Below the pieces are notes generated by a model. It had not been told where the DNA came from and ran no database searches. It saw nothing but the letters and a program-made list of their open reading frames with translations. Below, piece by piece: positions 14,758-35,009 of a stretch of 64,000 nt of DNA (positions are counted from its first letter, which is position 1; every line of letters starts with the position of its first letter). A program made the translations under genes and the position numbers. The DNA is taken from contig LBWB01000007.1 in NCBI GenBank assembly GCA_000993405.1, forward strand, positions 8,383-72,382, written 5' to 3'. This DNA is from Candidatus Woesebacteria bacterium GW2011_GWB1_39_12. GTDB taxonomy: Bacteria; Patescibacteriota; Microgenomatia; UBA8517.

Positions 14758-15016
14758 TTGAAGATTAATTTAGGTTAATAAGCTAATAGCTTATTATTCA
14801 AAATATGGTTGGAAGCGAATCCCATTAATTGCGTAAGCTAATTAATTGGGAACTTTTTGAGGATTTGATCCTGGTCCAGGACGAACGCTAGCGACGTGCT
14901 TTAAGCATGCAAGTAGAGCGAGCCCGCAAGGGCAAGCTGCGAACGGCTGAGTAACACGTAGGAACCTACACTTTGGTGGGGTACAGCTCGCCGAAAGGCG
15001 GGGTAATACCGCATGA

Positions 15017-15204
15017 CCTCGTGCTTTGCACAAGGAAATTACGAATAACACAATAAATTCCAAATAACAAATTACAAACAATTATCAATTAATAAATAAC
15101 AAATAATTAACATTGTTTTTTTCATTGAAAATTGGAACTTGAATTTTGTTTGTATATTGGAATTTGTGATTTGTTACAAGTGATTTTCTCGCGCAGAGTG
15201 CGAG
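15017..15204 (+). repeat. IVS-like quasi-palindromic AT-rich insertion element A1 in 16S (helix 10/V2 region)
   Basis: Bounded by GC hairpins cctcgtgctttgcacaagg and ctcgcgcagagtgcgag. The two halves are complementary (ttccaaat... / ...atttggaa). Same family as the 23S elements. Confidence 0.6.
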
Positions 15205-15809
15205 AAAAGGATGTAACTGTCCGCCGAAGAAGGGGCCTGCGGCCTATCAGCTTGTTGGTGGGGTAACGGCCTACCAAGGCTACGACGGGTAGGGGGCGTG
15301 AGAGCGTGTTCCCCCAGAATGGGACTGAGACACGGCCCATACACCTACGGGTGGCAGCAACTGGGAATCGTGCGCAATGGACGAAAGTCTGACGCCGCGA
15401 CGTCGCGTGTGGGATGACGGCCTTCGGGTTGTAAACCACTTTTGCCAAAGAGTGATTACTTTGGAGAATAAGCACCGGCTAACTACGTGCCAGCAGCAGC
15501 GGTAATACGTAGGGTGCAAGCGTTGTCCGAATTTATTGGGCGTAAAGAGTTCGTAGGCGTTTCCTTACATCTTGTTTCAAATACCGGAGCTCAACTTCGG
15601 GAAGGGGCAAGAGATGGAGGAAATTGGAGAGTGCAGGGGCTACTGGAACTTGCGGTGTAGGAGTGAAATCCGTTGATATCGTAAGGAACACCGAGGGCGA
15701 AGGCAAGTAGCTGGGCACACCTTGACGCTGAGGAACGAAAGCTAGGGTAGCGAAAGGGATTAGAGACCCCTGTAGTCCTAGCCGTAAACGATGCTCGCTA
15801 GGGATTTGC

Positions 15810-16012
15810 CACGCAAAGGATATGTCCTTTGCGGGAATTTCTAAGCACAAATATCTAAATTCTAAGTAATATCCAATTTCCAATTTTCCAAATTCAAAAC
15901 AGACTAAAGTGTTATGTATTTGGAGTTTGGAATTCGAGATATTTGAATTTGTTTAGGATTTCGAATTTGGGATTTAGAGTTTCCACGCAAAAACGACACA
16001 TTTTTTGCGTGG
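15810..16012 (+). repeat. IVS-like quasi-palindromic insertion element A2 in 16S (near position 840, V5 region)
   Basis: Flanked by ccacgcaaagg..cctttgcgg and ccacgcaaaaa..tttttgcgtgg hairpins. The interior is AT-rich with complementary halves. Confidence 0.55.
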
Positions 16013-16070
16013 TGAGTCCCGTAAGCTAACGCGTTAAGCGAGCCGCCTGGGGAGTACGAGCGCAAGCTTA

Positions 16071-16102
<32 letters not shown>

Positions 16103-16398
16103 CCAGTGGAGCATCGCAACCCCTGCCGTATGTTAAATTATTCATACGGGACTGGCCAGCTTAGCTGGCAGGAAGTGGGGACGATGTTAAGTCCGCATGG
16201 CCCTTATGTCTAGGGCAACACACATGCTACAATGGAGCCGACAATGGGTTGCCAAGTGGTAACACGGAGCTAATCCCATCAAACGGCTTCTCAGTTGGGA
16301 TTGAGGGCTGCAACTCGCCCTCATGAACGCGGAATTGGTAGTAATCGGAAATCAGCTAAGTTCCGGTGAATACGTTCTCGGGTCTTGTACACACCGCC

Positions 16399-17278
16399 GA
16401 AATTAAAACGCGCGTGGCAGTCATATTTTCTAACAAGTTAAAATCTTGTCTTTGTTGGATAACTTTAATTGTCTAATGGAGTAGCCAAAAAAATATATAA
16501 GCAGTCCTAGTCGGGTAACTGACTAGGGTGGAGGGCTTGAGGCAAAGAACAGGGATAGAATACAAAAAGATAGACGACTTCTGTTGGGCGGTCAGAAGGA
16601 AGTCGTTTTTACAAATCTTACTATTCATGTTTGGAACAGAAAGTATGATGACCCATGGAGATCCTTACAGGATTGAGGTAATTGCCTGTAAGGAAGTCAG
16701 CTTTTCCATAATAGGTAATTGAGCAAGTCTGACTTGCTTGACATTTTCGGGTTATATTTGTAATCTGAAATTACAATTACTGAAGGGAAAAACGTAAATG
16801 TTATTAACTCCAGATTATATAGTTGGTCTTACTGAAGGGGAAGGATGTTTCTTAGTATGCTTGAGACGCGATAATCGGATTGAATTTCGATTTTTTATAG
16901 CTCAGGCAATAGGGAATAGACCTCTTCTTGAAGAAATTAAAAAGTTTTTCAAAGTTGGAAGTGTTTACCAAAAGTCTAATGTAAAGGGAAAGTTACCGGC
17001 ATATGTCTTTGAAATTTCGAAAAGAGATGACATATATAAAGTACTTATTCCATTTTTTCAAAAAAACAAATTGAAAGGCATTAAATCTAAGTCGTTTGCA
17101 GTTTTTGAAGAAATTGCAAAATTAGTTAAAGGTAGACAAGATAAACGTAAACTAACTTCTGAAGAACTGAACTACATAACCAACTTAAGATTTGGAATGA
17201 ATAAACATTACGGCTCGCTAAGTGCGGAAAAACCGCTCGCTTAGTGGGAACGCGCAATAGCCTTAATGAAGCGCAATC
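16399..17278 (+). mobile_element. Intron in 16S at the site equivalent to E. coli position 1397-1400, carrying a LAGLIDADG homing endonuclease gene; probably group I
   Basis: The conserved tgtacacaccgcc...cgtcaag is interrupted by about 880 nt that contain the 16798..17244 ORF. Boundaries are approximate. Confidence 0.65.
16798..17244 (+). CDS. LAGLIDADG-family homing endonuclease, intron-encoded
   Basis: LLTPDYIVGLTEGEGCFLV matches the LAGLIDADG motif. 148 aa, embedded in the 16S insertion. Confidence 0.75.
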   Translation: MLLTPDYIVGLTEGEGCFLVCLRRDNRIEFRFFIAQAIGNRPLLEEIKKFFKVGSVYQKSNVKGKLPAYVFEISKRDDIYKVLIPFFQKNKLKGIKSKSFAVFEEIAKLVKGRQDKRKLTSEELNYITNLRFGMNKHYGSLSAEKPLA

Positions 17279-17552
17279 CGTCAAGTTAGTGAAGTTGGGG
17301 GCACCCGAATCCCGGATGTTCCGGGGCAAGGTGAAACCAGCGACAAGAATTAAGTCGTAACAAGGTATCCGTTCTGGAAGGAGCGGATGGATCACCTCCT
17401 TTCTAAGGAGTGTGAACTCCGATTAAATCGGAGATTACCCCTCAGTTTTCAGGTCGCAGTTTGCTGATAAACTAAACTGGACTCGCGCCTTCTGCGATAG
17501 TGGGCGTTTCCGACCATATTTTGGAGGCCAACCTAAATTATAAATGTCATAA

Positions 17553-17582
17553 AAAAACCCACCGTTTAAGGTGGGTTTTTTA
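17553..17582 (+). terminator. Terminator-like hairpin immediately downstream of 16S
   Basis: aaaaaacccaccgtttaaggtgggtttttt. It has the same stem as 14603-14628. Confidence 0.45.
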
Positions 17583-18078
17583 GTGGTAGAAATTAATATC
17601 CGAAAGTGTGGGGGCAAACATCCCGACTTCGCTTCCCCGAATTTAACCTCGGGGCGGCAAAGTTGCTTTAGAGGATTTTTAGTTCACCCCCACGCTTCCG
17701 GATACAAAAATAAGTTATATCCTTTCTATATTTATTTTAGCATTTTTAAAGAACCGCCGAGTCAAACTCGGCTGGTGCGTTAGACGCTCCGCACTGTTAC
17801 GGATCGAAAGTATTTCAATCCGTAAGTTGTGCGGCGGATTTAAAAGATTATGGAAAAAAGATGAGTGGTTATTGTGTAGCAGAAGCTACAAAATAATTTG
17901 TTCAGGCGCTTGTGCCCAAACTTCCCATCCCCATATTCTTAATAAATCCTTTGTCCCGATAAAATCGGGACAGCCGCTGTCCCAAGTCAAGCTTGACGTA
18001 AGCCGAGTATGACTCGGGTTGTGCCCCTGAAGTCAGGTTCCTCCTAAGGTCCTTTGGACCTCAGGGGCACTATAAATA

Positions 18079-18336
18079 TTACAAACTTTTCTTCCTCGTG
18101 CTCATAAGAAAAAGAGCAATGAGGATAATAATGACTACGGGCACGCTTATAGATCGCCATGCGTTGGTAGTAAAAAATGGCAGCACATAAGCAGCCCACG
18201 ATTTCCAGCTAAGGAATGAAACTAAAATCCCTAGCCCAAGGAAAATACAAAAAATCTTGTACCCGACACTGTCGGGTTTCCGAACCGGTCTATCGTTCAT
18301 TGCCTTTACTCCTTTTGAAAAAGATTTTTTCCTCAT
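18079..18336 (-). CDS. Small two-TM membrane protein (hypothetical) inside the rRNA spacer
   Basis: 85-aa ORF with two hydrophobic helices. Confidence 0.35.
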   Translation of the reverse strand: MRKKSFSKGVKAMNDRPVRKPDSVGYKIFCIFLGLGILVSFLSWKSWAAYVLPFFTTNAWRSISVPVVIIILIALFLMSTRKKSL

Positions 18337-18853
18337 ACGAGGAGAGAGGGGGGGAAAAGTTTTTTCTTCTCCCTCTTTTTCCTCGCAAGAGGCGAGAAAG
18401 GATTCCTAACACACAAATTTTTAATGTGCTAATTCCGCATTATTGACCCTCAAAATTAATTGAGAATCAAGTGGTGCGGGGGAGAAAGAAAAGATAGATA
18501 GTGGAAAGGGGGTTTTAGGTTGCAATAATAATTGCAAAATAAAATAATGATTTGAACGCAACGTTCAAATCCCCAATTCCTTTTCTTTTCGATCTCCCTG
18601 ATCCGTATTATTGTGTGGCAATCCGCCAGCAAGATGCTTTCGCAATCTCGAGGGCAATTTTGCCTCACTCAACGGATATTTCCGCATTTTCAGGTACCAG
18701 TCGGTACCTGATTTTATTCTTTGTTTTTCTCATCCGAAGATGAGTCTCCCACCAAGCTAAGCTTGGTAAACAAAGAGGGGAGAAGGGGGCGGTACCCTTC
18801 CGAGCTGCGTTTCCAACGCAATTCGGGGTGCTGACCGCCCCATAAGGCTCTAT

Positions 18854-19540
18854 TTATTTGACACGAACAACAATGTTCGCGTCATTTCCTGTTGAGCCAT
18901 CAGGCCCGTGGCCATAGATCGTGTAGGTACCGGGTTCAAGGACGAACCCAAGATATAGCCACCCGATGTGGTGGTTGTCCTTGTTGACCCATACCGCTGG
19001 GGGTTCGAGGGGGATGCAATGCATCCCTTTGGTGCAGATTCGCACCTTCTCGAGGGTCCCAAGCCACGTGATCGTGAGCCCGCCACTACCGCTCGGGTAG
19101 TACGTTGCCCGCTTGGGGGCAACGATTTTTGTGACGTCCTTGTCGGACTTCACATAGACGGGGGGGACGGGGGTGCCGGTCGGAACAGGGGTCGGGTTGG
19201 GGACGGGAGTTGGATCAGGGCAATCAGGGCGCTGAATTTTCAGCTGATCTTTTTCGACGTGAGTCGGATTCGACCATTTAGCCGTCGCATTGACGACTGC
19301 CTGTTTCTGGCCGCCCTGCCAGCTTCCCGACTGGTGATTCCAGTGTATTGAAGCCCCAGAAGGGCTTAACTTGGAAACCCAGGAATCCCAGCCTTGGCAG
19401 TTTGCGTTGCCATCGATCTGAAAAATGTAACCCCCGCCCTTGGCGGACGCTGAATCCGACATAGTGCCGGCCAGCATAACGGTCAGGATTAGAGTGGCGA
19501 CCAGCCACTTTTTAATACGGTTGGCGTTCATTATGAACAC
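18854..19540 (-). CDS. Secreted hypothetical protein with a signal peptide and a Pro/Thr linker (PTPVPNPTPVPTGTPVPP)
   Basis: 228 aa with signal MFIMNANRIKKWLVATLILTVMLAGT. The gene is markedly more GC-rich than its surroundings. Confidence 0.6.
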   Translation of the reverse strand: MFIMNANRIKKWLVATLILTVMLAGTMSDSASAKGGGYIFQIDGNANCQGWDSWVSKLSPSGASIHWNHQSGSWQGGQKQAVVNATAKWSNPTHVEKDQLKIQRPDCPDPTPVPNPTPVPTGTPVPPVYVKSDKDVTKIVAPKRATYYPSGSGGLTITWLGTLEKVRICTKGMHCIPLEPPAVWVNKDNHHIGWLYLGFVLEPGTYTIYGHGPDGSTGNDANIVVRVK

Positions 19541-19865
19541 CTCCTATCGATATTCTCCGCTCTACGGCTGGAGTGAGGCCGACTTTCAAAATTGCTGAAA
19601 GCGGTGTAGAAGCAAATAAAGTTAAATAAGTTAATTAAGTTAACTAAGAGATTAAGTAATATTTAGATTTTTGTGCTCCTAATTAACCGATTAACAGATC
19701 ACTATTCTTGCTCGCAAAGCGAGTACTTACTCCCACAAAGCTTCCAGCAATAATTTGTTAATGTGCGACACCCTCCTTATCTTCGCACTTGGCTTTTCAA
19801 TACTATTCGTATACGCCTCCTGCCAAGATTGGTCGGAGGGTTGTGTACTATTTTTATTTATTAAG

Positions 19866-19885
19866 GAACACAAAAAAGCCGCGGC
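19866..19885 (-). terminator. Hairpin plus T-run when read on the minus strand, downstream of the 20245..22497 gene
   Basis: aaaaaagccgcggcttt on the plus strand, which reads aaagccgcggcttttttt on the minus strand. Confidence 0.35.
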
Positions 19886-20244
19886 TTTAGAGGCCACGGC
19901 TTTAATACAAACCGTTAACGGTTAATCAAAATTTTTGATTAACTTAAATTACTTCACCTCTAAAGCATTTACCCTAAGAATGTATCCTAGAGTATTGGCA
20001 CTATAACACAGTAAGTGCTATTTGTCAAGCCCCCCGTGCTCTTGTGCGAGTAAATATTACATTCAAAACACTTTGAGGGGCGAGTTTTTGCAATACTTTG
20101 AATTCACTCGATAATTGCAAATCAAAAAACACACGGGATTTGAAATCGAAAATTTCTGAGTGCGCCAATACAAAATTAGATTGTACCGGTGGTACAATAA
20201 ACTTGGAGAGTACGTTTTCACGAAGTTTTCACGGTAAACTGAAG

Positions 20245-22497
20245 CTAATTTTCGTCTTCAATCTTGCCCTCAAATATTGTCCCTGAAGACTCATTTTGGG
20301 CAGGTTCGGAATCTGATTTCACTTTCTTGGCATATCTTTCCCTTGATACCCGGATAACTTTATCTTTATTCTGATTTCGGGAAACCGGAAGGGGAAGAGT
20401 ATTGGCCAAGAATGGCCTTGTCGTATGTCCATCTATTGTTAGTTTTAGCGCGATTTGGAAATTTTGCAAGTTCACCAGATCGTTTTGCGAGAACACCTCG
20501 GCAAACTCTTTAAAAATTACGTTTGCGTCTTCCGCCCCAACGGCAAAAGAAATTAAAGTTCCGGCATTTCCCAAAATTGCTTTTTGGACATATTCGGGAA
20601 TTTGTGCCATGTATTGGTTTGCTAAAGTTAACGCCAGGCCGAATTTTCTTGCCTCGGACAAAATTTTTATAAATGAATCGGTTGCAAAATTCTGAAATTC
20701 ATCAACATATAAATAAAAAGGGACCCGGGTCTCTTTGGGAATATCGACACGGTGCATTGATGCCAATTGAAACTTTGTAATAAGCATTGCACCAAGAAGA
20801 CTTGAGTTGTCTTCGCCAAGGCGACCTTGGGAAAGGTTTGCGATGAGAATTTTTTTGCCGTTAATTATTTCATCAATAGAAATGGTTGACTTGGGTGCGC
20901 CGATTATTCTGCGTATCAAAGGAGAAGTCACGAACTGTCCGACTTTATTTTGGATGGGAGCTATTGCTTCTTTTTGAAGGGCCATGGGCATTTTGTCGAA
21001 TTCTTCTTTCCAGAAATGAACTAGTGACGGATCGGTTAGTCTGGCAACGATTTTATTTCTGAAAGACTGGTTTGCAAGCATTTTTAAAACGTCTGCCAAA
21101 GTTGAATTGGGGATTTCGGTCAGCGTTAAAAATGAATTTCTTAAAATGTATTCCATTCGGGCAGACCAGACGTTTGCCCAGACTTTTGTAAATATACTCA
21201 TTAAACCCGAGGCGACGAGTTCTGCTTCCTCGCGATTTGTGACTTCCAGGGGATTTAAAACAATGGGGAAGTCACGGTCGGCCGGGTTAAAGTAAATGGT
21301 ATCGTTGATTCTTGAAGCCGGAATATAGTTTAAGATATCGTCGCAAAGGTCCCCATGCGGGTCAATTACGGCAACACCTCTGCCTTTTTTAAAGTCATCA
21401 ATTGCCATATTGGCAATCATTGTTGATTTACCGGTTCCCGTTTTTCCGACGGTCCAGATATGGCGAAGTCTGTCAGATTCTTTTATGCCGAAGATGCTTT
21501 CTTTATTTTTAAAAGGAGTCTTAGCAAAAAAATTGATTTTTCTTTTTTCCTCGTCAGTAAGCCCTTCAGAAACAGGGAGTTTTTCGGGGGGCTCTGTAAG
21601 AACCGATGTCCCCCAGGTAATTCCCGGAACTTTGATTTTTTCCGAAGGCAAATGCCATAAAGTTGCCAGCTCAATGATATTTAAAATTTGTTTATCGGAA
21701 ACACGCCTTGCCCTTAGAGCTTTAGTTTCCGAGGTTTTGTTAAAACGGTTAGGGGATTTGACAGAAAAAGAATTTGCATCTGATCTGGCAAAGACTCCGA
21801 AGGCGTCTGCAATACCTTTCAGGGTTTTATTTGTATTGCCGGCTATCCTTAAAGTAGTTCTGAAACCTGGGTAAGAAATTTTTTCTTTAATGATATTTGC
21901 GTCCGTCCTTTGGGAAAAAGTTCCATCGGCGTTTTTAGCACCTTTATCAGAGAAAACTTGTCCTTGGGTCTGCCAGTTGGGTGTTATTGACTCCAATGCG
22001 ATTTGGATGAGAACCACTTCATCCGGATCTCCTTTTGAAAGGACAGAAAGAATGGATGATAGAGGATCAACGTCCTGGAAATTAGAGTAAGTTTGGATGG
22101 AGTAAAAACTTCCCTTGGCAAGTTTTAGAAAAAACACTTTGATATCTTGATTCTCCAGAGGGCTCGCCTCGATTCGACCGAGTCGGAGCGGGCTCGCCTC
22201 GCTGAAGCTTTGGCGAAGCGGGTCTTCAATTTTTTCAATTATTACCAAAGGATAGTTTGAGCGGATCTGAGTCTCAATAAAAGATACTAATGACGCATGG
22301 CATGTAACAAGAAACCTGATTTGCTGGTTAACTAATGCAATCTCAAGAGCAAAAGCAGGTGGTTTTTTGCCGAGAAGTTTATCCAATGTTGATGCATAAT
22401 TAATTTGGGTTAAAGCGGCAAGAAATGTTTTTGCCGCCTCAGGAGTGACCTCGATATTTCGAGGTAGTTTAAGAGAAAGAGTTATTAATCCTTCCAC
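20245..22497 (-). CDS. TraD/VirD4-family (T4SS coupling-protein-like) P-loop ATPase; HerA/DUF87-like is the alternative
   Basis: Walker A TVGKTGTGKST, ...AVIDPHGD..., Walker B FYLYVDEFQNF, and ...LALTLANQYMAQ... as found in the conjugative coupling protein / T4SS-DNA-transfer domain. Confidence 0.55.
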   Translation of the reverse strand: MEGLITLSLKLPRNIEVTPEAAKTFLAALTQINYASTLDKLLGKKPPAFALEIALVNQQIRFLVTCHASLVSFIETQIRSNYPLVIIEKIEDPLRQSFSEASPLRLGRIEASPLENQDIKVFFLKLAKGSFYSIQTYSNFQDVDPLSSILSVLSKGDPDEVVLIQIALESITPNWQTQGQVFSDKGAKNADGTFSQRTDANIIKEKISYPGFRTTLRIAGNTNKTLKGIADAFGVFARSDANSFSVKSPNRFNKTSETKALRARRVSDKQILNIIELATLWHLPSEKIKVPGITWGTSVLTEPPEKLPVSEGLTDEEKRKINFFAKTPFKNKESIFGIKESDRLRHIWTVGKTGTGKSTMIANMAIDDFKKGRGVAVIDPHGDLCDDILNYIPASRINDTIYFNPADRDFPIVLNPLEVTNREEAELVASGLMSIFTKVWANVWSARMEYILRNSFLTLTEIPNSTLADVLKMLANQSFRNKIVARLTDPSLVHFWKEEFDKMPMALQKEAIAPIQNKVGQFVTSPLIRRIIGAPKSTISIDEIINGKKILIANLSQGRLGEDNSSLLGAMLITKFQLASMHRVDIPKETRVPFYLYVDEFQNFATDSFIKILSEARKFGLALTLANQYMAQIPEYVQKAILGNAGTLISFAVGAEDANVIFKEFAEVFSQNDLVNLQNFQIALKLTIDGHTTRPFLANTLPLPVSRNQNKDKVIRVSRERYAKKVKSDSEPAQNESSGTIFEGKIEDEN

Positions 22498-22559
22498 AGT
22501 AATTTATTATATATCAGGGGGTTGGAGAAAGAAGAGGGAAACAAACTCGTTGGTTATGG

Positions 22560-22922
22560 CTACCGCCGGAGAATTTCTGCTAGTTTATCAATAAAATCTT
22601 GTGTCTCTTTTGGGTGGGTATATATCCAGTAGGTGGCTGTACTCCCAACGCAGAGAAACGTAAGAAAAGCACTCACAGCAACTATGGCAGCCGATTTTCC
22701 TTCACCGGGTTCTGGTTGGTCTGGAATCACTTCTTTCGATATTTCTGTAGGGTCAAGTTCGTGCATAAAAAACTCGTAGTAAATTATAGGATTAATTGAG
22801 TTCGATGTCAAATTGTGGTAAATTAATCGTACTCGGGTGGTTAGTTCACCGGTTAGAACGCTTACCTGATGACAAACGAAGTTTGACATAACAAAAATTG
22901 CAAACGGGGGCACGTAGTTCAC
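22560..22922 (-). CDS. Possible small membrane protein; overlaps the tRNA-Ile fragment and gene
   Basis: 120-aa ORF with one TM. The overlap with tRNA sequence makes it doubtful. Confidence 0.25.
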   Translation of the reverse strand: MNYVPPFAIFVMSNFVCHQVSVLTGELTTRVRLIYHNLTSNSINPIIYYEFFMHELDPTEISKEVIPDQPEPGEGKSAAIVAVSAFLTFLCVGSTATYWIYTHPKETQDFIDKLAEILRR

Positions 22923-22979
22923 TGGTAGAACGCTTACCTGATAAGTAAGAAGTAGATAGTTCGATTCTATCCGTGCCCA
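22908..22979 (+). tRNA. tRNA-Ile (anticodon GAT) in the 16S-23S spacer
   Basis: Acceptor GGGCACG/CGTGCCC, anticodon stem CTTAC/GTAAG with loop CTGATAA, T-arm GATAGTTCGATTCTATC. Confidence 0.7.
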
Positions 22980-23195
22980 CTCAAAAGTAAGAGGTGTAAG
23001 GCTTGCCCTGAGCGAAGTCGAAGGGTTCGATTCCTTGCGCGCCCACAGAATGGATTTTTTACCTGTTGACGGAGTTCGATATTTTGTAATATAATTCCTT
23101 TTACCTTTTTAAGGCCGTTTACTTAATGAGAATCCGAAAATTAATATTAATCTATAACCCACAGGAATTCTGTGGCTAAATTAGGGAAAGATTAG

Positions 23196-23222
23196 GATCA
23201 TTAGGTAATCCCGCCTTAAAGC
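23196..23222 (+). terminator. Terminator-like hairpin between tRNA-Ile and tRNA-Ala
   Basis: aatcccgccttaaagcgggatttttt. Confidence 0.4.
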
Positions 23223-23283
23223 GGGATTTTTTATTGCACATTTGAAAATTAATATTAGGGAGATAGGGAAGATTAGGGATTAA

Positions 23284-23357
23284 GGGCCCGAAGTTTACCC
23301 GGTTTGAACGCGTCATTTGCAATGACGAGGCAGAGGGTTCGACTCCCTCCGGGTCCA
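23284..23357 (+). tRNA. tRNA-Ala (anticodon TGC) in the spacer
   Basis: Acceptor GGGCCCG/CGGGTCC with the G3:U70 identity pair, anticodon stem CGTCA/TGACG with loop TTTGCAA, T-arm GAGGGTTCGACTCCCTC. Confidence 0.7.
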
Positions 23358-23581
23358 CAACGAAAGAAATTGCTTTGCAATTTCAACGTTGTAGGAACGT
23401 TTAAATTCGAAAGAATTTATTACGTTCCACCCCATTGGTACTTGGAAAGTGGCGGTTGGTGACTGGATATTTTTTCGTCACGAGCCGCCAATTTCCAAAT
23501 ACTAATAATTATATTTGCACTTTGAAATCTGAAGACCATGAAGTGAGCTTTTGCTCTACTTCATGAGGAAAGTAAGGCCAT

Positions 23582-23760
23582 GCCTTGTGCATAGCACAAG
23601 GAATTTCTAATTTCTAATTCCTAATTTCTAAACAAATCCAAAGCACTAAATTCAAATGTTCAAAACTTTTTAATTAGTTTTGAATTTTGGATTTTAAAAT
23701 TTGAGAATTGTTTTGGATTTAGGATTTTGGATTTAGGATTTCCTCGCGCTGTGCGCGAGG
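23582..23760 (+). repeat. IVS-like element B1 at or near the 23S 5' end
   Basis: Hairpins gccttgtgcatagcacaagg and cctcgcgctgtgcgcgagg flank complementary ttctaatttc / ggatttagga halves. Confidence 0.5.
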
Positions 23761-24063
23761 CTATAAGTCTGATATTAACGCAGACAGTGAATGCCTTGGT
23801 GTAAGTTGCCGAAGAAGGACGCACATGGTAGCGATATTCGTCGGGGAGGAGCCACGATCCTGTGATCCGGCGGTGTCCGAATGGAGAAATCCGACCGAGT
23901 TCATACTCGATCACTCCGTGATAAAAATAATTTACGCAAGTAAGTTGTATAGTCGCGGTAGAGGGAACCGTCCAAACTGAAACATCTAAGTAGGGCGAGG
24001 AAGAGAAATCAATAGATATTCCGTCAGTAGCGGAGAGCGAAAGCGGAAAAGCCCAAACCCGCC

Positions 24064-24242
24064 CGTGCGTAGCACTGGAAGTTCCAATTTCCAATCACCA
24101 ATTTCCAAATAATTTCAAATTTCAAATGACAAATTTTCAAAACATTTCTAATCTTAAAGGAGTTTTGAGTTTTTGATTTTGAATTTCGAGTTTGTTTGGG
24201 ATTTGGAATTTGGGTTTTGGAATTTCTCATGCTGCGCATGAG
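24064..24242 (+). repeat. IVS-like element B2 (23S helix-9 region)
   Basis: The 3' hairpin is ctcatgctgcgcatgag. The two halves are complementary (ttccaatttccaa / ttggaatttgg). Confidence 0.55.
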
Positions 24243-24427
24243 TGGGGGTTGTAGGAGCCCGATGTGGGAGTCGACTTGGTAGCAGAATTATCTGGAATGG
24301 TAGATCATAGAGAGTGAAAATCTCGTATGCAAAATTAAGTCGACCTCTAGGGATTTCCTGAGTACCACGATTTAAATCTTCGTGGGAAGCTGGGGGAGTC
24401 ATCCTCCAAGGCTAAATACAACTTGCA

Positions 24428-24468
<41 letters not shown>

Positions 24469-24523
24469 GGGCGAGACGCCCAGTGAAATAGAACCTGAAA
24501 CTGTTTGCGGACAAACCGAGAGA

Positions 24524-24682
24524 GCCTTCGAACAGGAAATTTCAAAAGACAAATAACAAATTACAAACAAGTTCCAAATAACAGAACCCAATATATAGTT
24601 TTAAAAAGTTTTGCAATTTGTGAATTAATTATTGTTTGTATATTGGAAATTGGTAATTGGAGTTTCCCGCTCGGAGAGCGGG
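24524..24682 (+). repeat. IVS-like element B3 (23S helix-25 region)
   Basis: It follows cagtgaaatagaacctgaaac. The 3' hairpin is cccgctcggagagcggg. Confidence 0.55.
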
Positions 24683-24916
24683 TGATCTCGTGCCTATTGA
24701 AGAATGAGCCGGCGAGTTACCGCGTAGCGCATAGTCTAACCGAGTCTGACTCGGGGAGGCGTAGGGAAACCAAGTCTGAATAGGGCGATTAGCGCGAAGT
24801 GGTAGACCCGAAACCGGGTGATCTATCCATGAGCAGGGTGAACCCCGACGAAAGTCGGGGGGAGGCCCGAACCGGTGTAAGTTGCAATTTGCTCGGATGA
24901 CTTGTGGATAGGGGTA

Positions 24917-24950
<34 letters not shown>

Positions 24951-25179
24951 CCCGAAAGGTCTATAGGGACCGTGGTACGTAAGGTGTTGCCGATGGTAGA
25001 GCTACTGAATGGGTAAGCGAGGGTAACCGAGTTTACTCAATCAAACTCCGAATAGCGGTAAACATTAACGTACTAAACAGTCGCATCGGGCTAAGCTGAT
25101 GCGGCGAAAGGGAAACATCCCAGACTCTCAGCTAAGGCCTCTAAATTACAGCTAAGTTTCAAAGGAAGTTCACGTCCGT

Positions 25180-25230
<51 letters not shown>

Positions 25231-25300
25231 CAGCTCACTGGTCGAGGTTGTGGGCGCCGAAGATTTATCGAGGATAAGCTGTATGCCGAAGCTGGAGATG

Positions 25301-25506
25301 CCTGTTCGTAGAACAGGAAATTTCAAATAATAAATGCCAAGTAACAAACCCTTCGATTTTACTCAGGGTCCTGAGCAGGTCGAAGGACAAATTCCAAATA
25401 ATAAAATCCCAATGAATAAAAAAGTTTTTAGATTTTAAGATTTGTGATTTAAATTTTGTTTGTAAATTGGATATTGAAAATTGGAGTTTCCCGCTCTGCG
25501 AGCGGG
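25301..25506 (+). repeat. IVS-like element B4 (23S helix-45 region)
   Basis: 5' hairpin cctgttcgtagaacagg; 3' hairpin cccgctctgcgagcggg. Confidence 0.55.
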
Positions 25507-25746
25507 TGTGGTAGGGGAGCGTTCCGTATCCAGTGAAGTTAAGCCGTAAGGCTTGGTGGAGGATACGGGAGTGAGAATGCCGGCATGAGTAGCGTACTAT
25601 CCCGGAGAGAATCCGGGACACCGAATGCCCGAGGATTCCGTCGCGAGGTTCGTCCCCGACGGGTTAATCGGTACCTAACCTAAGGCCAAATGGCGTAGGG
25701 GATGGATAACTGGTCAAAATTCCAGTATTTATTTTGAATCGAAAGC

Positions 25747-25904
25747 CCTTGTGCTTTGCACAAGGAAATTACAATAAACAAACACCAATTTCCAAACAAA
25801 TTCCAAATTGCAATTAAGAAAAATAAAATAATTGTGATTTGTTAATTAATATTTGTTTGTAATTTGTAAATTGTGTTTTGTGATTTTCTCGCGCAGAGCA
25901 CGAG
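25747..25904 (+). repeat. IVS-like element B5 (23S, domain III region)
   Basis: Its 5' hairpin ccttgtgctttgcacaagg and 3' hairpin ctcgcgcagagcacgag are almost identical to the ends of 16S element A1. Confidence 0.55.
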
Positions 25905-26979
25905 GTAATTGGGGGTTGACTGGATAGGATGGTTGAAGCCTCATAACGATTTGGGGTGTAAGTTATAAGATAGTGTCAGCAGGAAAATCCGCTAATACGT
26001 TTAATCAAGTAGCGATGCAGAGTCTTGCGCAAGCAAGACAATTTCATCCCATTCAATCTACAAGAAAAGACTCGCAGTGAGATTCAAGGTAAGCCGTACC
26101 GCAAACCGACACAGGTGGGCTGGTCGAGAAGACTAAGGTGATCGAGAGAAAGAGGTTCAAGGAACTCGGCAAAAAATCTGGACGTAAGTTCGCAAGATGT
26201 CCTCCCTGAAAAATCTTCGGATTTTTTAGGGTACAACAAAAGAGTGCTAACCGACTGTTTATCAAAAACACAGGTCCGTGCAAAAGCGAAAGCTAAGGTA
26301 TACGGGCTGACGCCTGCCCAGTGCCGGTAAGTGAAGGGGATGGGTTTTACGGATTTATCCGTAAGGCCTTGAACTCAAGCTCCGGTAAACGGCGGCTTTA
26401 ACTATAAGAGTCCTACGGTAGCGAAGTTCCTTGTCGTGTAAGTTACGACCCGCACGAAAGGCGTTACGAGTTAGCAACTGTCTCGAGCCTCTACTCGGCG
26501 AAATTGCGTTGGCTGTGAAGACGCGGCCTACTTCCACCAGGACAAAAAGACCCCGTGGAGCTTTGTTTTGTGCGAGCCAATTGTTTAGAGTAGGAGGGAC
26601 CCTGAGAGCAATCGAAGGGGACACTGAAACACCTCCCTTTGGAACGTGGCAAGACTTACCTAACGTCCTTGCAAACAGGTCGAGGAAAAGTGCTAGGTGG
26701 GCAGTTTTACTGGGGCGGTACCCTGCCAAAAGGTAACGCAGGGGTACAAAGGTTGGCTTAGCACGGATGGACATCGTGCTGAATGTATAAAGGCATAAGC
26801 CAGCTTGATAGCGACTGCGACGGCAGAAGCTAGTACGAAAGTAGGTCTTAGTGATCCTCCGATTGCCTAGTGATAGGCACGGAGCTTAACGGATAAAAGC
26901 TACCCCGGGGATAACAGAGTAGTCGCACCCGAGAGTCCATATCGACGGTGCGGTTCGCTACCTCGATGTCGGCTCACCG

Positions 26980-27010
<31 letters not shown>

Positions 27011-27023
27011 GGTCTGTTCGCCC

Positions 27024-27068
<45 letters not shown>

Positions 27069-27502
27069 GAGTCCGATAACATATCGGACTGACACCAAGC
27101 GGTCTCATCCCTTGACTGACTGAAATACACATCGAAGGATTAGTAACTAATTTGTTATCAACAATCGTTTATAAGGATATATTAAACGGTTTAATTTAAA
27201 TATTTAAATTTGATCTTTTTGTCTAAATAGGAAAGAGGGAATATAAATCTGACTATATGCTGGAAACTCCGGTGTATCCTGTGCTACTCTTGAAAAAGAG
27301 TGAAAAAGCAACAGGTGCGGACAATCAGCAGGAAAGGCCTCATTAGATATGGAATTATCTAATGGGGAATCCTCAACGACTATACGTCAGAATACGTTCA
27401 GTTTACATGAACGTATAAGATATAGTCTGATCTCCATGGCGACTTGGAGGGTTGAAAATCGTTCAGCCGTAAAAACAAGCGGAGTATTGATATACTAAAT
27501 GT
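27069..27502 (+). mobile_element. ORF-less insertion of about 430 nt in 23S just upstream of the sarcin-ricin loop, equivalent to about E. coli position 2590; putative intron
   Basis: The conserved gtcgtgagacagtt ... cggactctatccggtgg...cagtacgagaggacc is interrupted by AT-rich sequence that contains no ORF of 60 aa or more. Confidence 0.45.
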
Positions 27503-27630
27503 CGGACTCTATCCGGTGGAAGCGTTCGAGTCTTGAAGGGAGCTGGCCTCAGTACGAGAGGACCAGGCCGGGGGAATCCCTGGTGTGCCGGTTGTGGCAT
27601 CAGCCGCAACGCCGGGTAGCTACATTCCCA

Positions 27631-27662
<32 letters not shown>

Positions 27663-27847
27663 GCCCCCCCTAAGATTAGGACTCGTTATTAGATCCCTAG
27701 AAGAATACTAGGTTGTTCGACAGGCGGTGGAAGTCGCGTAAGCGATTAAGCCTACCTTGTACGAATCGATCGATTTCAGACTTACTTACTCCTAATGAAG
27801 TATTGTATAAGCTCACTTTATGGTCTTTAGATGAGAAGCAAAGCTTT

Positions 27848-27966
27848 GGTCTGGTGATGATAGCGGTGCGGAACTACCTGATCCCATTCCGAACTCAGTC
27901 GTCAAACACACCTGCGGCGACGATAGTAAGCGGGCAACTGTTTGCGAAAATAGCACGTCGCCAGGC
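27848..27966 (+). rRNA. rrf: 5S rRNA
   Basis: ggtctggtgatgatagcggtgcggaactacctgatcccattccgaactcagtcgtcaaacac...gcacgtcgccagg resembles bacterial 5S. Confidence 0.65.
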
Positions 27967-32083: not shown

Positions 32084-32136
32084 CTGGTGAACGGATAAAC
32101 GGCTTAACTGATGAACTGGATGAATTGTCGGACCTT

Positions 32137-32500
32137 TATTTTTTAAGATTTTTGGCAGTATTTGCAATCAGATAGTTTATTTCTTTTGGTAGTTGATCTA
32201 ATAAATCCTTAATTTCTACATATTCTTTGTCTGCTACTAGTTTTCTAACTTTGGCTTTCTCTAGCCAGTGAATACTTTCAAAAGCAGAGCCTCTAGCTTG
32301 GTAAAAGAATTTCATCTTATCTTTTTTGAAATATCGACCTTCACCCTCAATTATATTTGCGGCAATTGAATCTATAGATCTTACAAACTGTTCACCAAAG
32401 GTCTTTTGTGCTAAAAAGCTCCATTTTATTACTATAAACCAAACCTTATCCGATAAAAATGAAGCTAATTTGTAAGCAGTAATTTTATCTGGGGTGATCG
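32137..32500 (-). pseudogene. Degraded four-helix-bundle protein gene of the 23S-rRNA-intervening-sequence-protein family (TIGR02436-like); no ATG and an N-terminal deletion
   Basis: My own minus-strand translation gives ...KVWFIVIKWSFLAQKTFGEQFVRSIDSIAANIIEGEGRYFKKDKMKFFYQARGSAFESIHWLEKAKVRKLV...* with the family signature S-I-x-x-N-I-x-E-G-x-G-R...D...F...A-x-G-S-x-x-E. It is absent from the ORF track because it has no Met start. Confidence 0.5.
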
Positions 32501-33295
32501 TTATTTTCAGTTTATCAGTTATCTGTTCAGCAGTTCAACAGTTATTCCCAACTTATCCACAAACTTTTTTCCTACCAAATAACTGGCGAAAGTTAGATTC
32601 GGAAATTTTTAGACTTAAACTATGGGAGGATATACTATATATAGTAGTTAGATTATAGGGTTTGACAGAGTTGACAGATGGTGTTAGACTAAATTTGTTT
32701 AAAAATCGCATGTTTTATTGCTCCCTTGCGGGACGGGTGGTGTGTAGGGCAGGCATACTACCCGTTCCTTGAGGGTTCAATCCATGCGATTTTTTTATGG
32801 GAAGACTTCTCGGGTGGCCCCGCACAGCTCTTATTTCTCGCCACGAACTACGTTTGTGCTCTCGAATTGCGAGTGTGCGGGGTAAATGTGTAGGCGAAGT
32901 CCCGCACAATCCTGTAAGGATCTGTGCGGGAGCAGGCATACTACCCGTTCCTTCAGGCTAGAAAAAGCTCGGCTCTTTTTTTATCGCACAAAAAAACCGA
33001 GTCTAACTCGGCTCCACTTGTCTCTAGGCCCTCCTAATTTTAGCACTCGGCTTTTCAATACTATTCGTATACGCCTCGTGCTGCAATTTTAGAAGGGCAG
33101 AGCAGGCAATAGACAAGTATTATCACTATCAGACTATTATCTTAGTTAAGTGTTTGTCAAGTGCCTCTTGTCGCCGAAAGTTTAATTTCTCATTCCTTGA
33201 AAATCCTATAAGAGGTTAAAATAAGCTTGTGTACGGAAACTTGACATGCTTATAACTCTCACATATAATTGGCTTCGAACTGCTCCCAAGTGTGA

Positions 33296-34192
33296 ATGAA
33301 AAATAAGTTTTTCAAACAAGGTGTGATTACTGCTCTTCTTTTGCTCACTTCAGTTTTTTTGGGAAGAATTTTCGGTTACGAAGCTTTTGCCGAAAGTTCA
33401 GTAACTCCGCCAAGCTTTCCGACATGTTCAGAGAAGATATTTGTTGCTGATGGTGATTGGGCTCATTATGATTCCGGGATCCATGGGATCCCTGGGGTAG
33501 GTAACTTCGAAGGAAGCGATGATGTTTATTCGTTGGGTTCTGGAAACTTTTTACAGTGTTTTTGTCCGGCCGGCGGGGGAGAGGGAACTCAAACTAACTG
33601 GTGGGATGTAGAGAATCTTAATCAAGAAGATATTAATTCATTCTTATCACAGAGTTGGTTTTTTGAATCAAGTGGTGATGGATGGAATTTATTAGACGAT
33701 CCATACCTAGTTAAGAATTCAAACTTTAGTTGTGCAGTACCTACCCCGACACCTCCGCCTTCAGGTGGTGGGGGTGGTGGTTCGCCTGGAGCACCTGTTT
33801 GTAATGCACCCGCAGTTACAAAAGCACCTCTTTATTCGAGTGCGAATTTATCAAGAATCGATAGCGATAGTATTAAAATAAGCTGGATAGTAACAGATGA
33901 TCGTGCTCAAAGGTACGGTATTTACTATGGTACGAATTCGGATAAACTTTCTTGGTATACCGAAGTTAAAGGACACGATACAAATGAGGCAATAATTAAT
34001 TTAGTACCCCAGGGTAATATATTTTTTAAGGTTTGTAGTATTGGAGAATGTGGAGATCAGGTGTGTGGGAGTGATATTCCTACAGTTCTGGGGGTGGCCA
34101 AAGGATTACCAGCTACAGGAACCATTGCACTTACTATTTTAGTCTTTGCACCAATTGGATATTATTTATATAGGCGCTTCAGGTTAGTATAA
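33296..34192 (+). CDS. LPXTG-anchored cell-surface protein
   Basis: Signal peptide, Gly/Pro linker (PTPTPPPSGGGGGGSPGAP), and a C-terminal LPATG sorting motif followed by a hydrophobic stretch and RRFRLV. Confidence 0.7.
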   Translation: MKNKFFKQGVITALLLLTSVFLGRIFGYEAFAESSVTPPSFPTCSEKIFVADGDWAHYDSGIHGIPGVGNFEGSDDVYSLGSGNFLQCFCPAGGGEGTQTNWWDVENLNQEDINSFLSQSWFFESSGDGWNLLDDPYLVKNSNFSCAVPTPTPPPSGGGGGGSPGAPVCNAPAVTKAPLYSSANLSRIDSDSIKISWIVTDDRAQRYGIYYGTNSDKLSWYTEVKGHDTNEAIINLVPQGNIFFKVCSIGECGDQVCGSDIPTVLGVAKGLPATGTIALTILVFAPIGYYLYRRFRLV

Positions 34193-34268: not shown

Positions 34269-35009
34269 ATGCACCCTAAAGGAATAATTTATCAAAACGG
34301 ACGTTCAGGTACACATGGTGAAATAATTCTGTTTTTACCTGTCATTGCCCGTTTGGTCTTTCATTTCATTCGTGGCTTAGGAGCGGGTCTGATTGCCTTT
34401 TCTTTTTTAACCTTTGCTTTTTCATTCGGACCGGTTATTCAGCAGGAGATATCATACAATCTTGAAAAAACCGGTCTGAAGACGCAGGAGGAGTCAGTTA
34501 ATGAAGGTTTTTCTTTAAGTATTGCAGAAGCGGATAGAATTCTGGCGGTACAGAAAGAAGCGCAAAGCTATGAAGTTAATTCCTATTTTTCCGTTGTTAT
34601 TCCCACAATTGATGCTAAAGCTAATGTAATTGCAAATGTAGATGTGTCAAATAAATCGGATTATCTTGAGGCGTTAAAGAAGGGGATCGCTCATGCGAAA
34701 GGCACTTACTTTCCGGGACAGGGCGGAAGAATATTTCTTTTTTCCCATTCAACGGATTCTCCTTTAAACTTTGCCCGCTACAATGCAATTTTTTATCTTT
34801 TAAAGAAACTTGAAAAAGGTGACACAATTATTGTCTTTTTTGCAGACAAAAAATATGAATACGAGATTGTCGACAAAATCATTGCTGATGCCGGTGATAC
34901 GTCTTGGCTAATGCCCAAGAAAGAGGGAGAGGAATTGATACTCATGACCTGTGATCCGCCGGGTACTACATGGAACAGACTTTTGGTTGTCGCGAAGCCA
35001 AAGGCATGA
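34269..35009 (+). CDS. Sortase-family transpeptidase
   Basis: N-terminal TM and the catalytic LMTC motif (EGEELILMTCDPPG) near the C-terminus. It is adjacent to its putative LPXTG substrate. Confidence 0.65.
   Translation: MHPKGIIYQNGRSGTHGEIILFLPVIARLVFHFIRGLGAGLIAFSFLTFAFSFGPVIQQEISYNLEKTGLKTQEESVNEGFSLSIAEADRILAVQKEAQSYEVNSYFSVVIPTIDAKANVIANVDVSNKSDYLEALKKGIAHAKGTYFPGQGGRIFLFSHSTDSPLNFARYNAIFYLLKKLEKGDTIIVFFADKKYEYEIVDKIIADAGDTSWLMPKKEGEELILMTCDPPGTTWNRLLVVAKPKA

Follow-up and report, generated by a model that had tools for sequence, protein, structure and literature searches.

An antisense ATPase gene in the 16S-23S rRNA spacer of Woesebacteria: a probably long-standing split of the ribosomal RNA operon

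What has split the ribosomal RNA (rRNA) operon of Candidatus Woesebacteria bacterium GW2011_GWB1_39_12, and is the split recent? In the 64,000 nt analysed here (the window: contig LBWB01000007.1, positions 8,383-72,382 of the forward strand, matched exactly by GenBank contig LBWA01000004.1 of assembly GCA_000993365.1), 6359 nt separate the gene for 16S rRNA from that for 23S (17404 to 23764), and this spacer contains antisense open reading frames (ORFs), tRNA-Ile, tRNA-Ala, tRNA fragments and hairpins. The block has as its conserved core a minus-strand gene (20245..22497) for a soluble ATPase of 750 amino acids (aa), with DUF8128 at its N-terminus followed by a P-loop domain of TrwB/VirD4 type. 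An initial annotation took the block for the remnant of a mobile or conjugative insertion that had targeted the spacer tRNA. The reading preferred here, to which a probability of about three in four is given, is that the locus is a correctly assembled and vertically inherited split rRNA operon of a Woesebacteria clade, and not a recent insertion.

The ATPase gene in the spacers of relatives

Metagenome assemblies from short reads classically break at rRNA genes, and a chimeric join of an rRNA contig with unrelated DNA had been named as something that would overturn the initial annotation. The exact 750-aa protein is present on ten contigs from differing samples and assemblers. Six of the ten match collinearly over 7 kb, from the 3′ end of 16S to the 5′ end of 23S, at 99.4-100% identity, with the differences confined to an insertion in 16S and to the 5′ region of 23S; the spacer itself is identical in all strain-level assemblies, and strain variants are accordingly uninformative about selection on the ATPase. 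With six or more independent collinear assemblies excluding the join, and with the same gene order in many other species, the probability left for an artefact is negligible.

About 20 distinct related genomes share the ATPase gene, its site between 16S and tRNA-Ile and its antisense orientation, with 51-79% protein identity and with 16S only 78-88% identical to that of the window. In a genome scan with the ATPase alignment, where the matches listed were mostly distant (35-52% identity), rRNA is near the ATPase gene in just two of 80 loci (L009 and L017; loci from the scans carry the prefix L), both belonging to the three closest and both having the arrangement of the window. The closer relatives came from a metagenome scan and from look-ups of exact proteins. 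Among looked-up homologues of 70-74% identity, 23S, tRNA-Ala and tRNA-Ile are upstream of the antisense ATPase gene in five out of five, and 16S is beyond the gene's end in three of them. In all eight full-length metagenome matches of 62-69% identity (L099-L106) tRNA-Ile is next to the start of the gene, and 23S and/or 16S is present wherever the flank reaches; 16S follows the gene end in the partial matches L147 and L155, and the rRNA/ATPase layout recurs at 51-56% identity in L109, L110 and L121. The layout is in none of the listed loci below 50% identity, where L150 has a 16S fragment about 10 kb off, at the end of the locus. Look-ups of an 84%-identical ATPase (P0002), and of an 89%-identical fragment of a 225-aa protein encoded closer to 16S (P0122), returned no record. 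The outer flanks of the operon are syntenic too, with LapA_dom and NUDIX genes before 16S and S1 and RadA genes after 5S. What differs is the distance to 16S: the end of the ATPase gene is approximately 200-900 nt from it in compact relatives (L109, L110, L121, L017, L101), and the distance exceeds 10 kb in L089, L091, L103 and L111. The extreme is L110 (2941-3060), in which less than 100 nt separate the ATPase gene end from the 16S 3′ end; a terminator sought between these two convergent and nearly abutting genes was not recognisable.

Comparison of the 16S-23S spacer among relatives therefore finds the ATPase fixed at the site and only the 16S-proximal cargo variable, and a test for presence/absence polymorphism was negative, the ATPase being at the site in every closer relative recovered. 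These results bear directly on the view that the 5-kb block is a decayed conjugative or integrative element that inserted fairly recently at tRNA-Ile and left the ATPase behind as its coupling protein. Its attractions are that the protein matches the TrwB/TraD/VirD4 families, that a partial copy of tRNA-Ile with its break at the anticodon loop stands beside the intact gene, and that the 225-aa gene is of foreign-looking composition. Yet the site is shared by those 20 or so genomes in spite of their 16S divergence, and the ATPase is strongly conserved (65-87% among the closest listed homologues), phylum-wide, found in housekeeping contexts and devoid of the membrane anchor of true coupling proteins. 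The 64-kb window contains no integrase or recombinase, relaxase, VirB4 or other type IV secretion system (T4SS) gene, and no att-like direct repeats bound the block by linking 17.4-18 kb with 22.8-23.1 kb. The tRNA fragment, moreover, is conserved in other species and stands 25 nt away from the intact tRNA instead of at the opposite end of the block. A recent element is on these grounds very improbable, and the same gene at the same place without bounding repeats is what the initial annotation had itself proposed as the mark of ancient, fixed content. The ATPase gene is host-like in composition, with a GC content at third codon positions (GC3) of 0.38; only the 225-aa gene deviates, at 0.65. 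One part of the mobile reading is kept, namely that the 16S-proximal half (about 17.6-20.2 kb) is species-specific and holds the gene whose composition looks foreign, together with the signs of old recombination that the fragments around tRNA-Ile give in the window and in relatives.

In the history proposed instead, the ancestor of the clade would have acquired an antisense copy of a phylum-wide chromosomal ATPase gene between the 16S 3′ end and tRNA-Ile, and the ATPase would then have been retained at the site under strong conservation. The stretch between it and 16S would have grown and turned over, coming to hold species-specific small genes, typically one for a GC-rich signal-peptide protein, and conserved structured elements. 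One old insertion event, with subsequent growth and turnover of the 16S-proximal side, appears to be the simplest history for the arrangements compared. Several points weigh against an inherited split of this kind. There are loci at 52-54% identity that have no rRNA neighbours and others at 51-52% that do, and with linkage not strictly tracking protein identity the clade may have other limits and more than one origin. No relative with an ‘empty’ spacer was among those recovered, so that the insertion event is itself inferred. The codon usage of the 225-aa gene is foreign-looking, and the tRNA fragments flanking tRNA-Ile are evidence of past recombination at this place. On the transcriptional side, the stem flanking 16S is only about 2.4 standard deviations beyond shuffled sequences, promoters and terminators rest on consensus matches only, and the hairpin at 23207, standing between the best plus-strand promoter-like site and tRNA-Ala, is a misfit with a simple tRNA-Ala-23S unit.

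Split rRNA operons as such are not new. Unlinked rRNA genes, defined by a spacer of more than 1500 bp, are common and phylogenetically conserved, including in Patescibacteria (Brewer et al. 2019/2020, bioRxiv 10.1101/705046), and 27 of 34 circularised genomes of the Candidate Phyla Radiation (CPR) have them (Lui et al. 2021, PMC8172020); in one class of the latter authors 16S and 23S share a strand, and the more than 2 kb that separate them include genes of the opposite strand. The spacer of the window exceeds both distances (>1500 bp of Brewer and >2000 bp of Lui), the 750-aa and 225-aa genes in it are on the minus strand and a terminator follows 16S, and the window is a member of this published class. 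It shares with the unlinked ‘type D’ CPR rRNA genes the common strand, the distance above 2 kb, the opposite-strand genes and the consequence that one promoter cannot serve both rRNAs, as well as a clade-specific, phylogenetically conserved pattern and a small, probably symbiotic genome. It differs in that the intervening gene is identified and is the same orthologue in about 20 genomes, in that the outer flanks of the operon are still syntenic, and in the distance of 6.4 kb where hundreds of kb are typical of unlinked genes. Fixation of the ATPase gene in the rRNA spacer of a Woesebacteria clade seems to be undescribed in the literature searched. The locus provides a natural case of an rRNA operon that was split and the split then tolerated, and the synteny of 16S, antisense ATPase, tRNA-Ile, tRNA-Ala and 23S is a simple marker for this Woesebacteria lineage. 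There is a practical side as well, in that amplicon or long-read typing across 16S, the spacer and 23S, and rRNA-based binning, assume a short spacer and will fail or mislead for the clade.

The ATPase and its phylum-wide family

The initial description of the 750-aa protein as a T4SS coupling-protein-like ATPase stands in part. Profile searches with Pfam do find a TrwB-type domain (TrwB_AAD_bind, 1.7e-12, residues 343-654; TraG-D_C, 1.3e-7; DUF87, 1.6e-6), preceded by the approximately 330 residues of DUF8128 known from precomputed annotation, and the Walker A sequence GKTGTGKST is invariant among the aligned homologues. The part that does not stand is the likeness to a coupling protein as a whole, since all curated NCBIfam TraD/VirD4 models score far below their cut-offs (the best is SXT_TraD with 46 bits against 366; CD1115 reaches 33 against 250) and there is no transmembrane segment, no 19-residue window exceeding a Kyte-Doolittle value of 1.22. 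A sequence search of PDB recovered only the P-loop of TrwB. The AlphaFold2 model, with a mean predicted local distance difference test of 75, has a soluble alpha/beta N-terminal domain of 330 residues and a RecA-like C-terminal domain with a helical insertion at residues 422-546. Its best Foldseek matches are VirB4/TrwK, HerA, TrwB and DotL, with a TM-score to TrwB of 0.53-0.62 when normalised to TrwB, and over its full length the predicted fold is about as close to VirB4 and HerA as to TrwB.

The protein is thus a member of the VirB4/VirD4/HerA-FtsK translocase superfamily whose ATPase domain is nearest to coupling proteins, and it has neither of the two features that define the latter, a membrane anchor and T4SS or relaxase neighbours. 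It has the P-loop domain and helical insertion of TrwB of R388, TraD of F, VirD4 and DotL, and unlike them is without N-terminal transmembrane helices and without relaxase or mating-pair genes nearby. It would most likely work as a hexameric NTP-driven translocase, probably with no role in conjugation.

A protein search yielded more than 2900 homologues, the closest listed being 65-87% identical, several of them named Woesebacteria, and sharing long invariant stretches. Contig scans gave at least about 600 matches in each of two collections, one of genomes and one of metagenomes, and those listed span Microgenomates, Saccharibacteria, Dojkabacteria, Peregrinibacteria and Parcubacteria. In a set of about 160 loci the ATPase gene has no constant partner, the best neighbour cluster occurring in 25; recurrent neighbours in the distant loci resemble, by eye, SecDF, topoisomerase I, sigma factor, NadD and Pgk. 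Judged by these sequence relatives, the ATPase gene is a phylum-wide chromosomal one with distant members in housekeeping contexts. The window is likewise ordinary chromosome, with genes for a P-type ATPase, thioredoxin reductase, DsbA, S1, RadA, a sortase, Rho, TatC, histidine kinases and glycosyltransferases.

In 2918 Patescibacteria genomes, 5713 VirD4-type homologues were counted of which only 148 are near virB4, and the VirD4-type homologue of Southlakia is non-essential, for which exaptation was suggested (PMC12102498). The ATPase of the window resembles these orphan coupling-protein homologues in its VirD4/TrwB-like domain, its distance from virB4 and its wide distribution in the phylum; what it adds to the picture is a protein without membrane anchor, with a DUF8128 of approximately 330 residues, and fixed in the rRNA spacer of one clade. 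A ‘VirD4/TraD-like’ label in Patescibacteria is not to be read as evidence of a conjugative element. Database titles need similar care. Many public records of metagenome-assembled genomes with the ATPase (L009, L012, L013, L017 and others) are titled ‘uncultured Gammaproteobacteria’, ‘Pseudomonadales’ or ‘Nevskiaceae’; the 16S beside the ATPase gene in L009 and L017 is 78-80% identical to the Woesebacteria 16S of the window, and those titles are probably wrong.

Transcription of the split locus and the fragments of tRNA-Ile

The 16S gene (14853..17404, plus strand) is interrupted. Its Rfam match stops at 16470, 930 nt too early, because of an intron-like insertion of about 880 nt near the 3′ end (~16399-17278), which carries a LAGLIDADG homing-endonuclease ORF (16798-17244; Pfam LAGLIDADG_1, 4e-17). 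The universal 16S 3′ end (aagtcgtaacaaggta...ggatcacctcctttct) was read at 17353-17404, and the start originally assigned to the block is correct for that reason. A further insertion in 16S, of about 165 nt, is near 15030-15194. On the same strand follow tRNA-Ile (GAT; 22908..22980) and tRNA-Ala (TGC; 23284..23358), both found by ARAGORN and Rfam, and then, by Rfam, 23S (23764..27786), which through its insertions is longer than the model by about 1.1 kb and has a group I intron at 27196-27449, and 5S (27850..27966). rRNA introns with LAGLIDADG ORFs are on record for CPR bacteria (Brown et al. 2015, as cited in 10.1101/705046), and both rRNA genes of the window carry such insertions; unlike these introns, which are inside genes and are spliced or excised, the block with the ATPase is between genes and consists of minus-strand cellular genes. 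Directly 5′ of 23S is an AT-rich palindromic element of about 180 nt with arms of 86 nt (23582..23761, inverted repeat I1). Related copies are within 16S (15834-15988) and within 23S (25747-25807) of the window, and relatives of the palindrome are in or beside the rRNA genes of many related loci (L097 with three copies, L121, L134, L155, L171), giving it the look of a small mobile insert that may be colonising rRNA loci.

That 16S and 23S are transcriptionally uncoupled was part of the initial annotation, and as an interpretation it is made plausible by the stem and terminator that 16S has of its own, by the strong stem of 23S and by the 5.3-kb stretch of antisense genes with promoter-like sites. 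The two terminator-like hairpins reported earlier, after 16S and before tRNA-Ala, were both recovered. After 16S there is a small hairpin directly (~17418-17435) and a strong one 147 nt past the 3′ end (17551..17581), of the form A7-CCCACC-gtttaa-GGTGGG-T6 and so resembling an intrinsic terminator on both strands, with only a sub-threshold Rfam match, to its terminator part; the other (23207..23236, plus strand) comprises a hairpin at 23207-23228 and a T-run. The region has more terminator-like sites than shuffled sequence does, 23 against 8.6 ± 2.8. The 3′ strand of the putative 16S processing stem (17505..17524, plus strand) is an 18-19-nt near-perfect complement of 14797-14815 upstream of 16S, and the flank duplex of -62 kcal/mol, against -49 ± 5.4 in shuffles, gives it modest support. 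The corresponding 23S duplex, in which 23474..23570 (plus strand) pairs with 27789-27860 after 23S, reaches -76.6 kcal/mol against -32.4 ± 4.5.

On the minus strand, a TATATAATA box (22505..22513) is 8 nt before the ATPase start codon and invariant in three species, and is likely, from its sequence and position, to be the -10 element of a near-leaderless ATPase transcript. A perfect sigma-70 consensus, TTGACA-17-TATAAT (22783..22811), is 290 nt upstream of the ATPase and faces both it and a 68-aa ORF; this region is 74-79% conserved in L089 and L102. On the plus strand a promoter-like site between the tRNAs, TTGACG-18-TATAAT (23066..23095), matches the consensus at 11 of 12 positions. The arrangement of these signals suggests that 16S, the antisense genes, and tRNA-Ile and tRNA-Ala-23S-5S are transcribed as separate units. 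16S would come from a unit of its own, with its flanking stem and then the bidirectional terminator; the ATPase antisense transcript would start from the conserved TATAAT box before the start codon, from the consensus promoter 290 nt upstream, or from both; tRNA-Ile and tRNA-Ala-23S-5S would have their own promoter or promoters.

The truncated copy of the 5′ half of tRNA-Ile described upstream of the intact gene is present at 22842-22882. It corresponds to tRNA positions 8-46 in 35 of 41 columns, including an exact run of 17 nt (alignment score 54, against 19 ± 4 with a maximum of 41 in 500 shuffles), diverges right after the anticodon GAT, ends 25 nt upstream of the intact gene and has no repeat at 17.4-18 kb. 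Counted with the hairpin and conserved leader that connect it to tRNA-Ile, the element spans 22842..22905 on the plus strand. Its part 22854-22905, with a hairpin at 22870-22888 that shows one compensatory change between species, is as well conserved as the tRNA itself (95% in L093, 92% in L097) and is therefore a maintained element and not a fresh scar, possibly, to judge from this conservation and its position, a part of the tRNA-Ile promoter or leader. On the other side of tRNA-Ile is a decayed pseudo-tRNA comprising the 3′ two-thirds, with a recognisable T arm and 3′ strand of the acceptor stem (22993..23047, plus strand; repeat family D1, with local alignment to tRNA-Ile and tRNA-Ala). 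All tRNA fragments of the window are within 70 nt of the intact tRNA-Ile.

Relatives have rearrangements of their own at this place. In L089 the 3′ half of the tRNA recurs as a 39-nt copy 4 nt from tRNA-Ile, and in L093 two genes are enclosed by direct repeats of 27 nt that look T-arm-like by eye and are 1402 nt apart. tRNA-Ile is inverted with respect to tRNA-Ala and 23S, so facing as the ATPase gene does, in L017 (7418-7491), L095 (6672-6747), L101 (1564-1637) and L104 (9866-9939), and in some relatives 2.5-6.4 kb of genes are between tRNA-Ile and tRNA-Ala. In these four, through the inversion, and in another, through the distance of 6.4 kb, tRNA-Ile is therefore not co-transcribed with 23S. 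Going by the arrangements compared, recombination at the spacer tRNA-Ile has clearly been repeated in the clade.

Recurrent recombination of this sort lends some credit to a tentative alternative, that an ancient integration targeted to tRNA-Ile started the split and that the region is still a hot spot for the capture of foreign genes, with cargo exchanged both between ATPase and 16S and between tRNA-Ile and tRNA-Ala. It is a possible history, the less favoured one here but compatible with the inherited split preferred above. Besides the partial copies flanking tRNA-Ile, the copy in L089, the repeats of L093 and the four inversions, it can draw on cargo that differs in every species, is often GC-rich and has no detectable homology with the spacer of the window, and on repeated structured motifs (B and C, below) that accompany the cargo. 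Against it, integrases or transposases are seen in none of the loci examined, the tRNA fragments do not bracket the variable segments (with the possible exception of L093), high GC3 could be a trait of a class of surface-protein genes, and the ATPase is a core gene and not cargo. Islands targeted to tRNA genes are integrase-mediated, have att sites in the tRNA genes and, on integration, normally duplicate the 3′ part of the tRNA. The spacer is like them in having partial tRNA copies beside an intact gene and variable, compositionally odd cargo nearby. It is unlike them in that there is no integrase, the copies adjoin the tRNA and do not bracket anything, the upstream copy is of the 5′ half and the fragment is conserved between species.

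The variable part next to 16S

The four minus-strand ORFs first listed for the spacer (85, 228, 750 and 120 aa) are all in the ORF list, and the accompanying statement that about 5 kb of the spacer is protein-coding was too generous: the ORFs total about 3.4 kb, only about 2.9 kb of it well supported (the 750-aa and 225-aa genes), and non-coding sequence, conserved in part, makes up about 2.5 kb of the spacer. The 228-aa ORF, which extends to 19540, likely starts at 19531 where AGGAGG precedes an ATG, and then encodes an orphan secreted protein of 225 aa with a signal-peptide-like N-terminus and a Pro/Thr linker (18854..19531, minus strand). Its gene has a GC content of 56% and a GC3 of 0.65, against 0.36 ± 0.05 for 41 other ORFs of the window. 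The identical protein is annotated in Candidatus Woesebacteria bacterium GW2011_GWB1_39_12, there is no Pfam or NCBIfam match, and among 5.8 billion sequences the only relatives are the protein itself and one 89%-identical fragment. The other two ORFs are doubtful. That of 85 aa (18079..18336, minus strand), with two hydrophobic segments, is called with 73 aa in some assemblies and is uncalled in the NCBI record. The ORF of 120 aa (22560-22922) runs, over its 52 N-terminal codons, antisense to tRNA-Ile and the tRNA-Ile fragment, and the perfect promoter is inside the ORF; its real part, if any, is the 68 aa chosen by gene callers (22560..22766, minus strand; one hydrophobic segment), itself doubtful. 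A search for the 85-, 68- and 225-aa ORFs in the spacers of relatives, and one for relatives’ cargo proteins in the spacer of the window, gave no homologues beyond artefacts of antisense tRNA and non-coding elements.

In most relatives of the clade the same slot, downstream of the ATPase gene and on its strand, has a different signal-peptide gene of 139-958 aa, mostly GC-rich (GC3 0.50-0.69, against 0.34-0.46 for the neighbouring ATPase gene). Some of the proteins are weakly related to each other and at least one, in L104, has an LPxTG sorting signal; outside the clade the pairing of ATPase with signal-peptide gene is only occasional. Either repeated foreign capture or a codon bias of the gene class may account for the composition of the slot genes.

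A functional module was also considered, with the ATPase powering the export or the assembly of the fast-evolving secreted or surface protein encoded next to it, placement in the rRNA locus tying expression to ribosome synthesis, or convergent transcription tuning the output of 16S. A signal-peptide gene downstream on the same strand in the window and most clade relatives, the sortase-type LPxTG end of some of the products (L104) and the ATPase gene abutting the 16S 3′ end in L110 would all agree with it. It is nevertheless improbable: the downstream gene is unconserved in sequence, is absent from the compact relatives L109, L110 and L017 and is no regular neighbour outside the clade, promoter- and terminator-like sites separate the 225-aa gene from the ATPase gene in the window, and signal peptides imply export by Sec, for which no such ATPase is needed.

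Between and beside these ORFs, five patches of the spacer (17588-17705, 18425-18700, 19767-19841, 19955-20031 and 20057-20139) have 70-84% identity with the corresponding stretches in relatives, and no Rfam family matches the conserved non-coding elements at E values up to 1. Patch A (17588..17705, minus strand), 72-79% identical in L089 and L095, has no protein homology. Element B (18425..18700, minus strand) is structured and has copies of 70-78% identity in L089 (two), L091 and L095; in its consensus fold, compensatory changes occur in 11 of the 41 pairs. Motif C (19767..19841, minus strand; CCCTCC...GGCGTATACGAATAGTATTGAAAAGCC...GGAGGG) is a structured repeat which scores 92.5 bits with its covariance model R1 and of which that model finds 17 copies in all, two of them in the window and almost all in the rRNA-linked clade. 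A candidate small RNA or leader (19868..20028, minus strand) has a promoter-like site at 20028..20000 (11 of 12 positions, with TG), about 120 nt of hairpins and a terminator-like sequence at 19903..19875; its predicted fold of -44.6 kcal/mol has z = -6.1, and 19955-20031 is 84% conserved in L093. These putative unannotated structured RNA motifs, and the recurrent genes for GC-rich secreted proteins, are the leads that the spacer offers.

Several copies of motif C are in other settings. The second of the window (33025-33099, within 32990-33170, minus strand) is between a TTGACA promoter-like site and a clear intrinsic terminator, and by this layout it resembles an independent gene for a small RNA of about 130 nt, with no match to an Rfam family. 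In the sense of the rRNA, motif C is 23-49 nt upstream of tRNA-Ala in L103 (8736-8810), L105 (2113-2186) and L097 (9136-9249). In L093 (3594-3667) it ends 12 nt before an 85-aa ORF, and its GGAGGG could there be a ribosome-binding site masked by the CCCTCC strand.

A bolder reading of the same material is that the spacer is a dedicated variable locus, in which GC-rich genes of foreign origin, coding for secreted or surface proteins, are captured or replaced again and again beside the fixed ATPase, with motifs B and C as cassette-associated recombination or regulatory elements and the tRNA-Ile fragments marking the site. Though unlikely, it would, if true, amount to an undescribed gene-capture hot spot in a locus that is normally very highly transcribed, possibly tied to attachment to a host.

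Genes for a four-helix-bundle protein, 23S_rRNA_IVP, which we take to be Avd-like, recur in the variable spacer part of relatives (L089 7091-7507, L091 11461-11889, L095 13643-13993, L093 19153-19515), the proteins being 42-78% identical to each other; in L089, L091 and L095 they are encoded beside the ATPase. A diversity-generating retroelement was considered on that account and rejected, there being no annotated reverse transcriptase near these genes and no pair of template and variable repeats in the spacer of the window. Elsewhere in the window a 59-aa ORF (32136-32315, minus strand) with a weak 23S_rRNA_IVP match is apparently a truncated gene of this kind; in the GC-rich non-coding stretch upstream of it (32749-32953, minus strand) are two direct repeats of 22 nt, aaggaacgggtagtatgcctgc, about 183 nt apart.

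There is also a GC-rich region further along the window, at 40594-44532, to which the 225-aa gene has no similarity (compared with 41-44 kb). A 3-kb stretch of it has a GC content of 52-54% and a strong purine skew on the plus strand (GC +0.29, AT +0.31), and it has very long overlapping ORFs, one of 1312 aa on the minus strand and two, of 431 and 698 aa, on the plus strand, with low-complexity repeats of Asp, Gly, Ala and Glu. Nearer to the rRNA genes, a surface protein with a Pro/Thr/Gly linker and an LPATG signal is encoded at 33296-34192 and is followed directly by a sortase gene (34269-35009).

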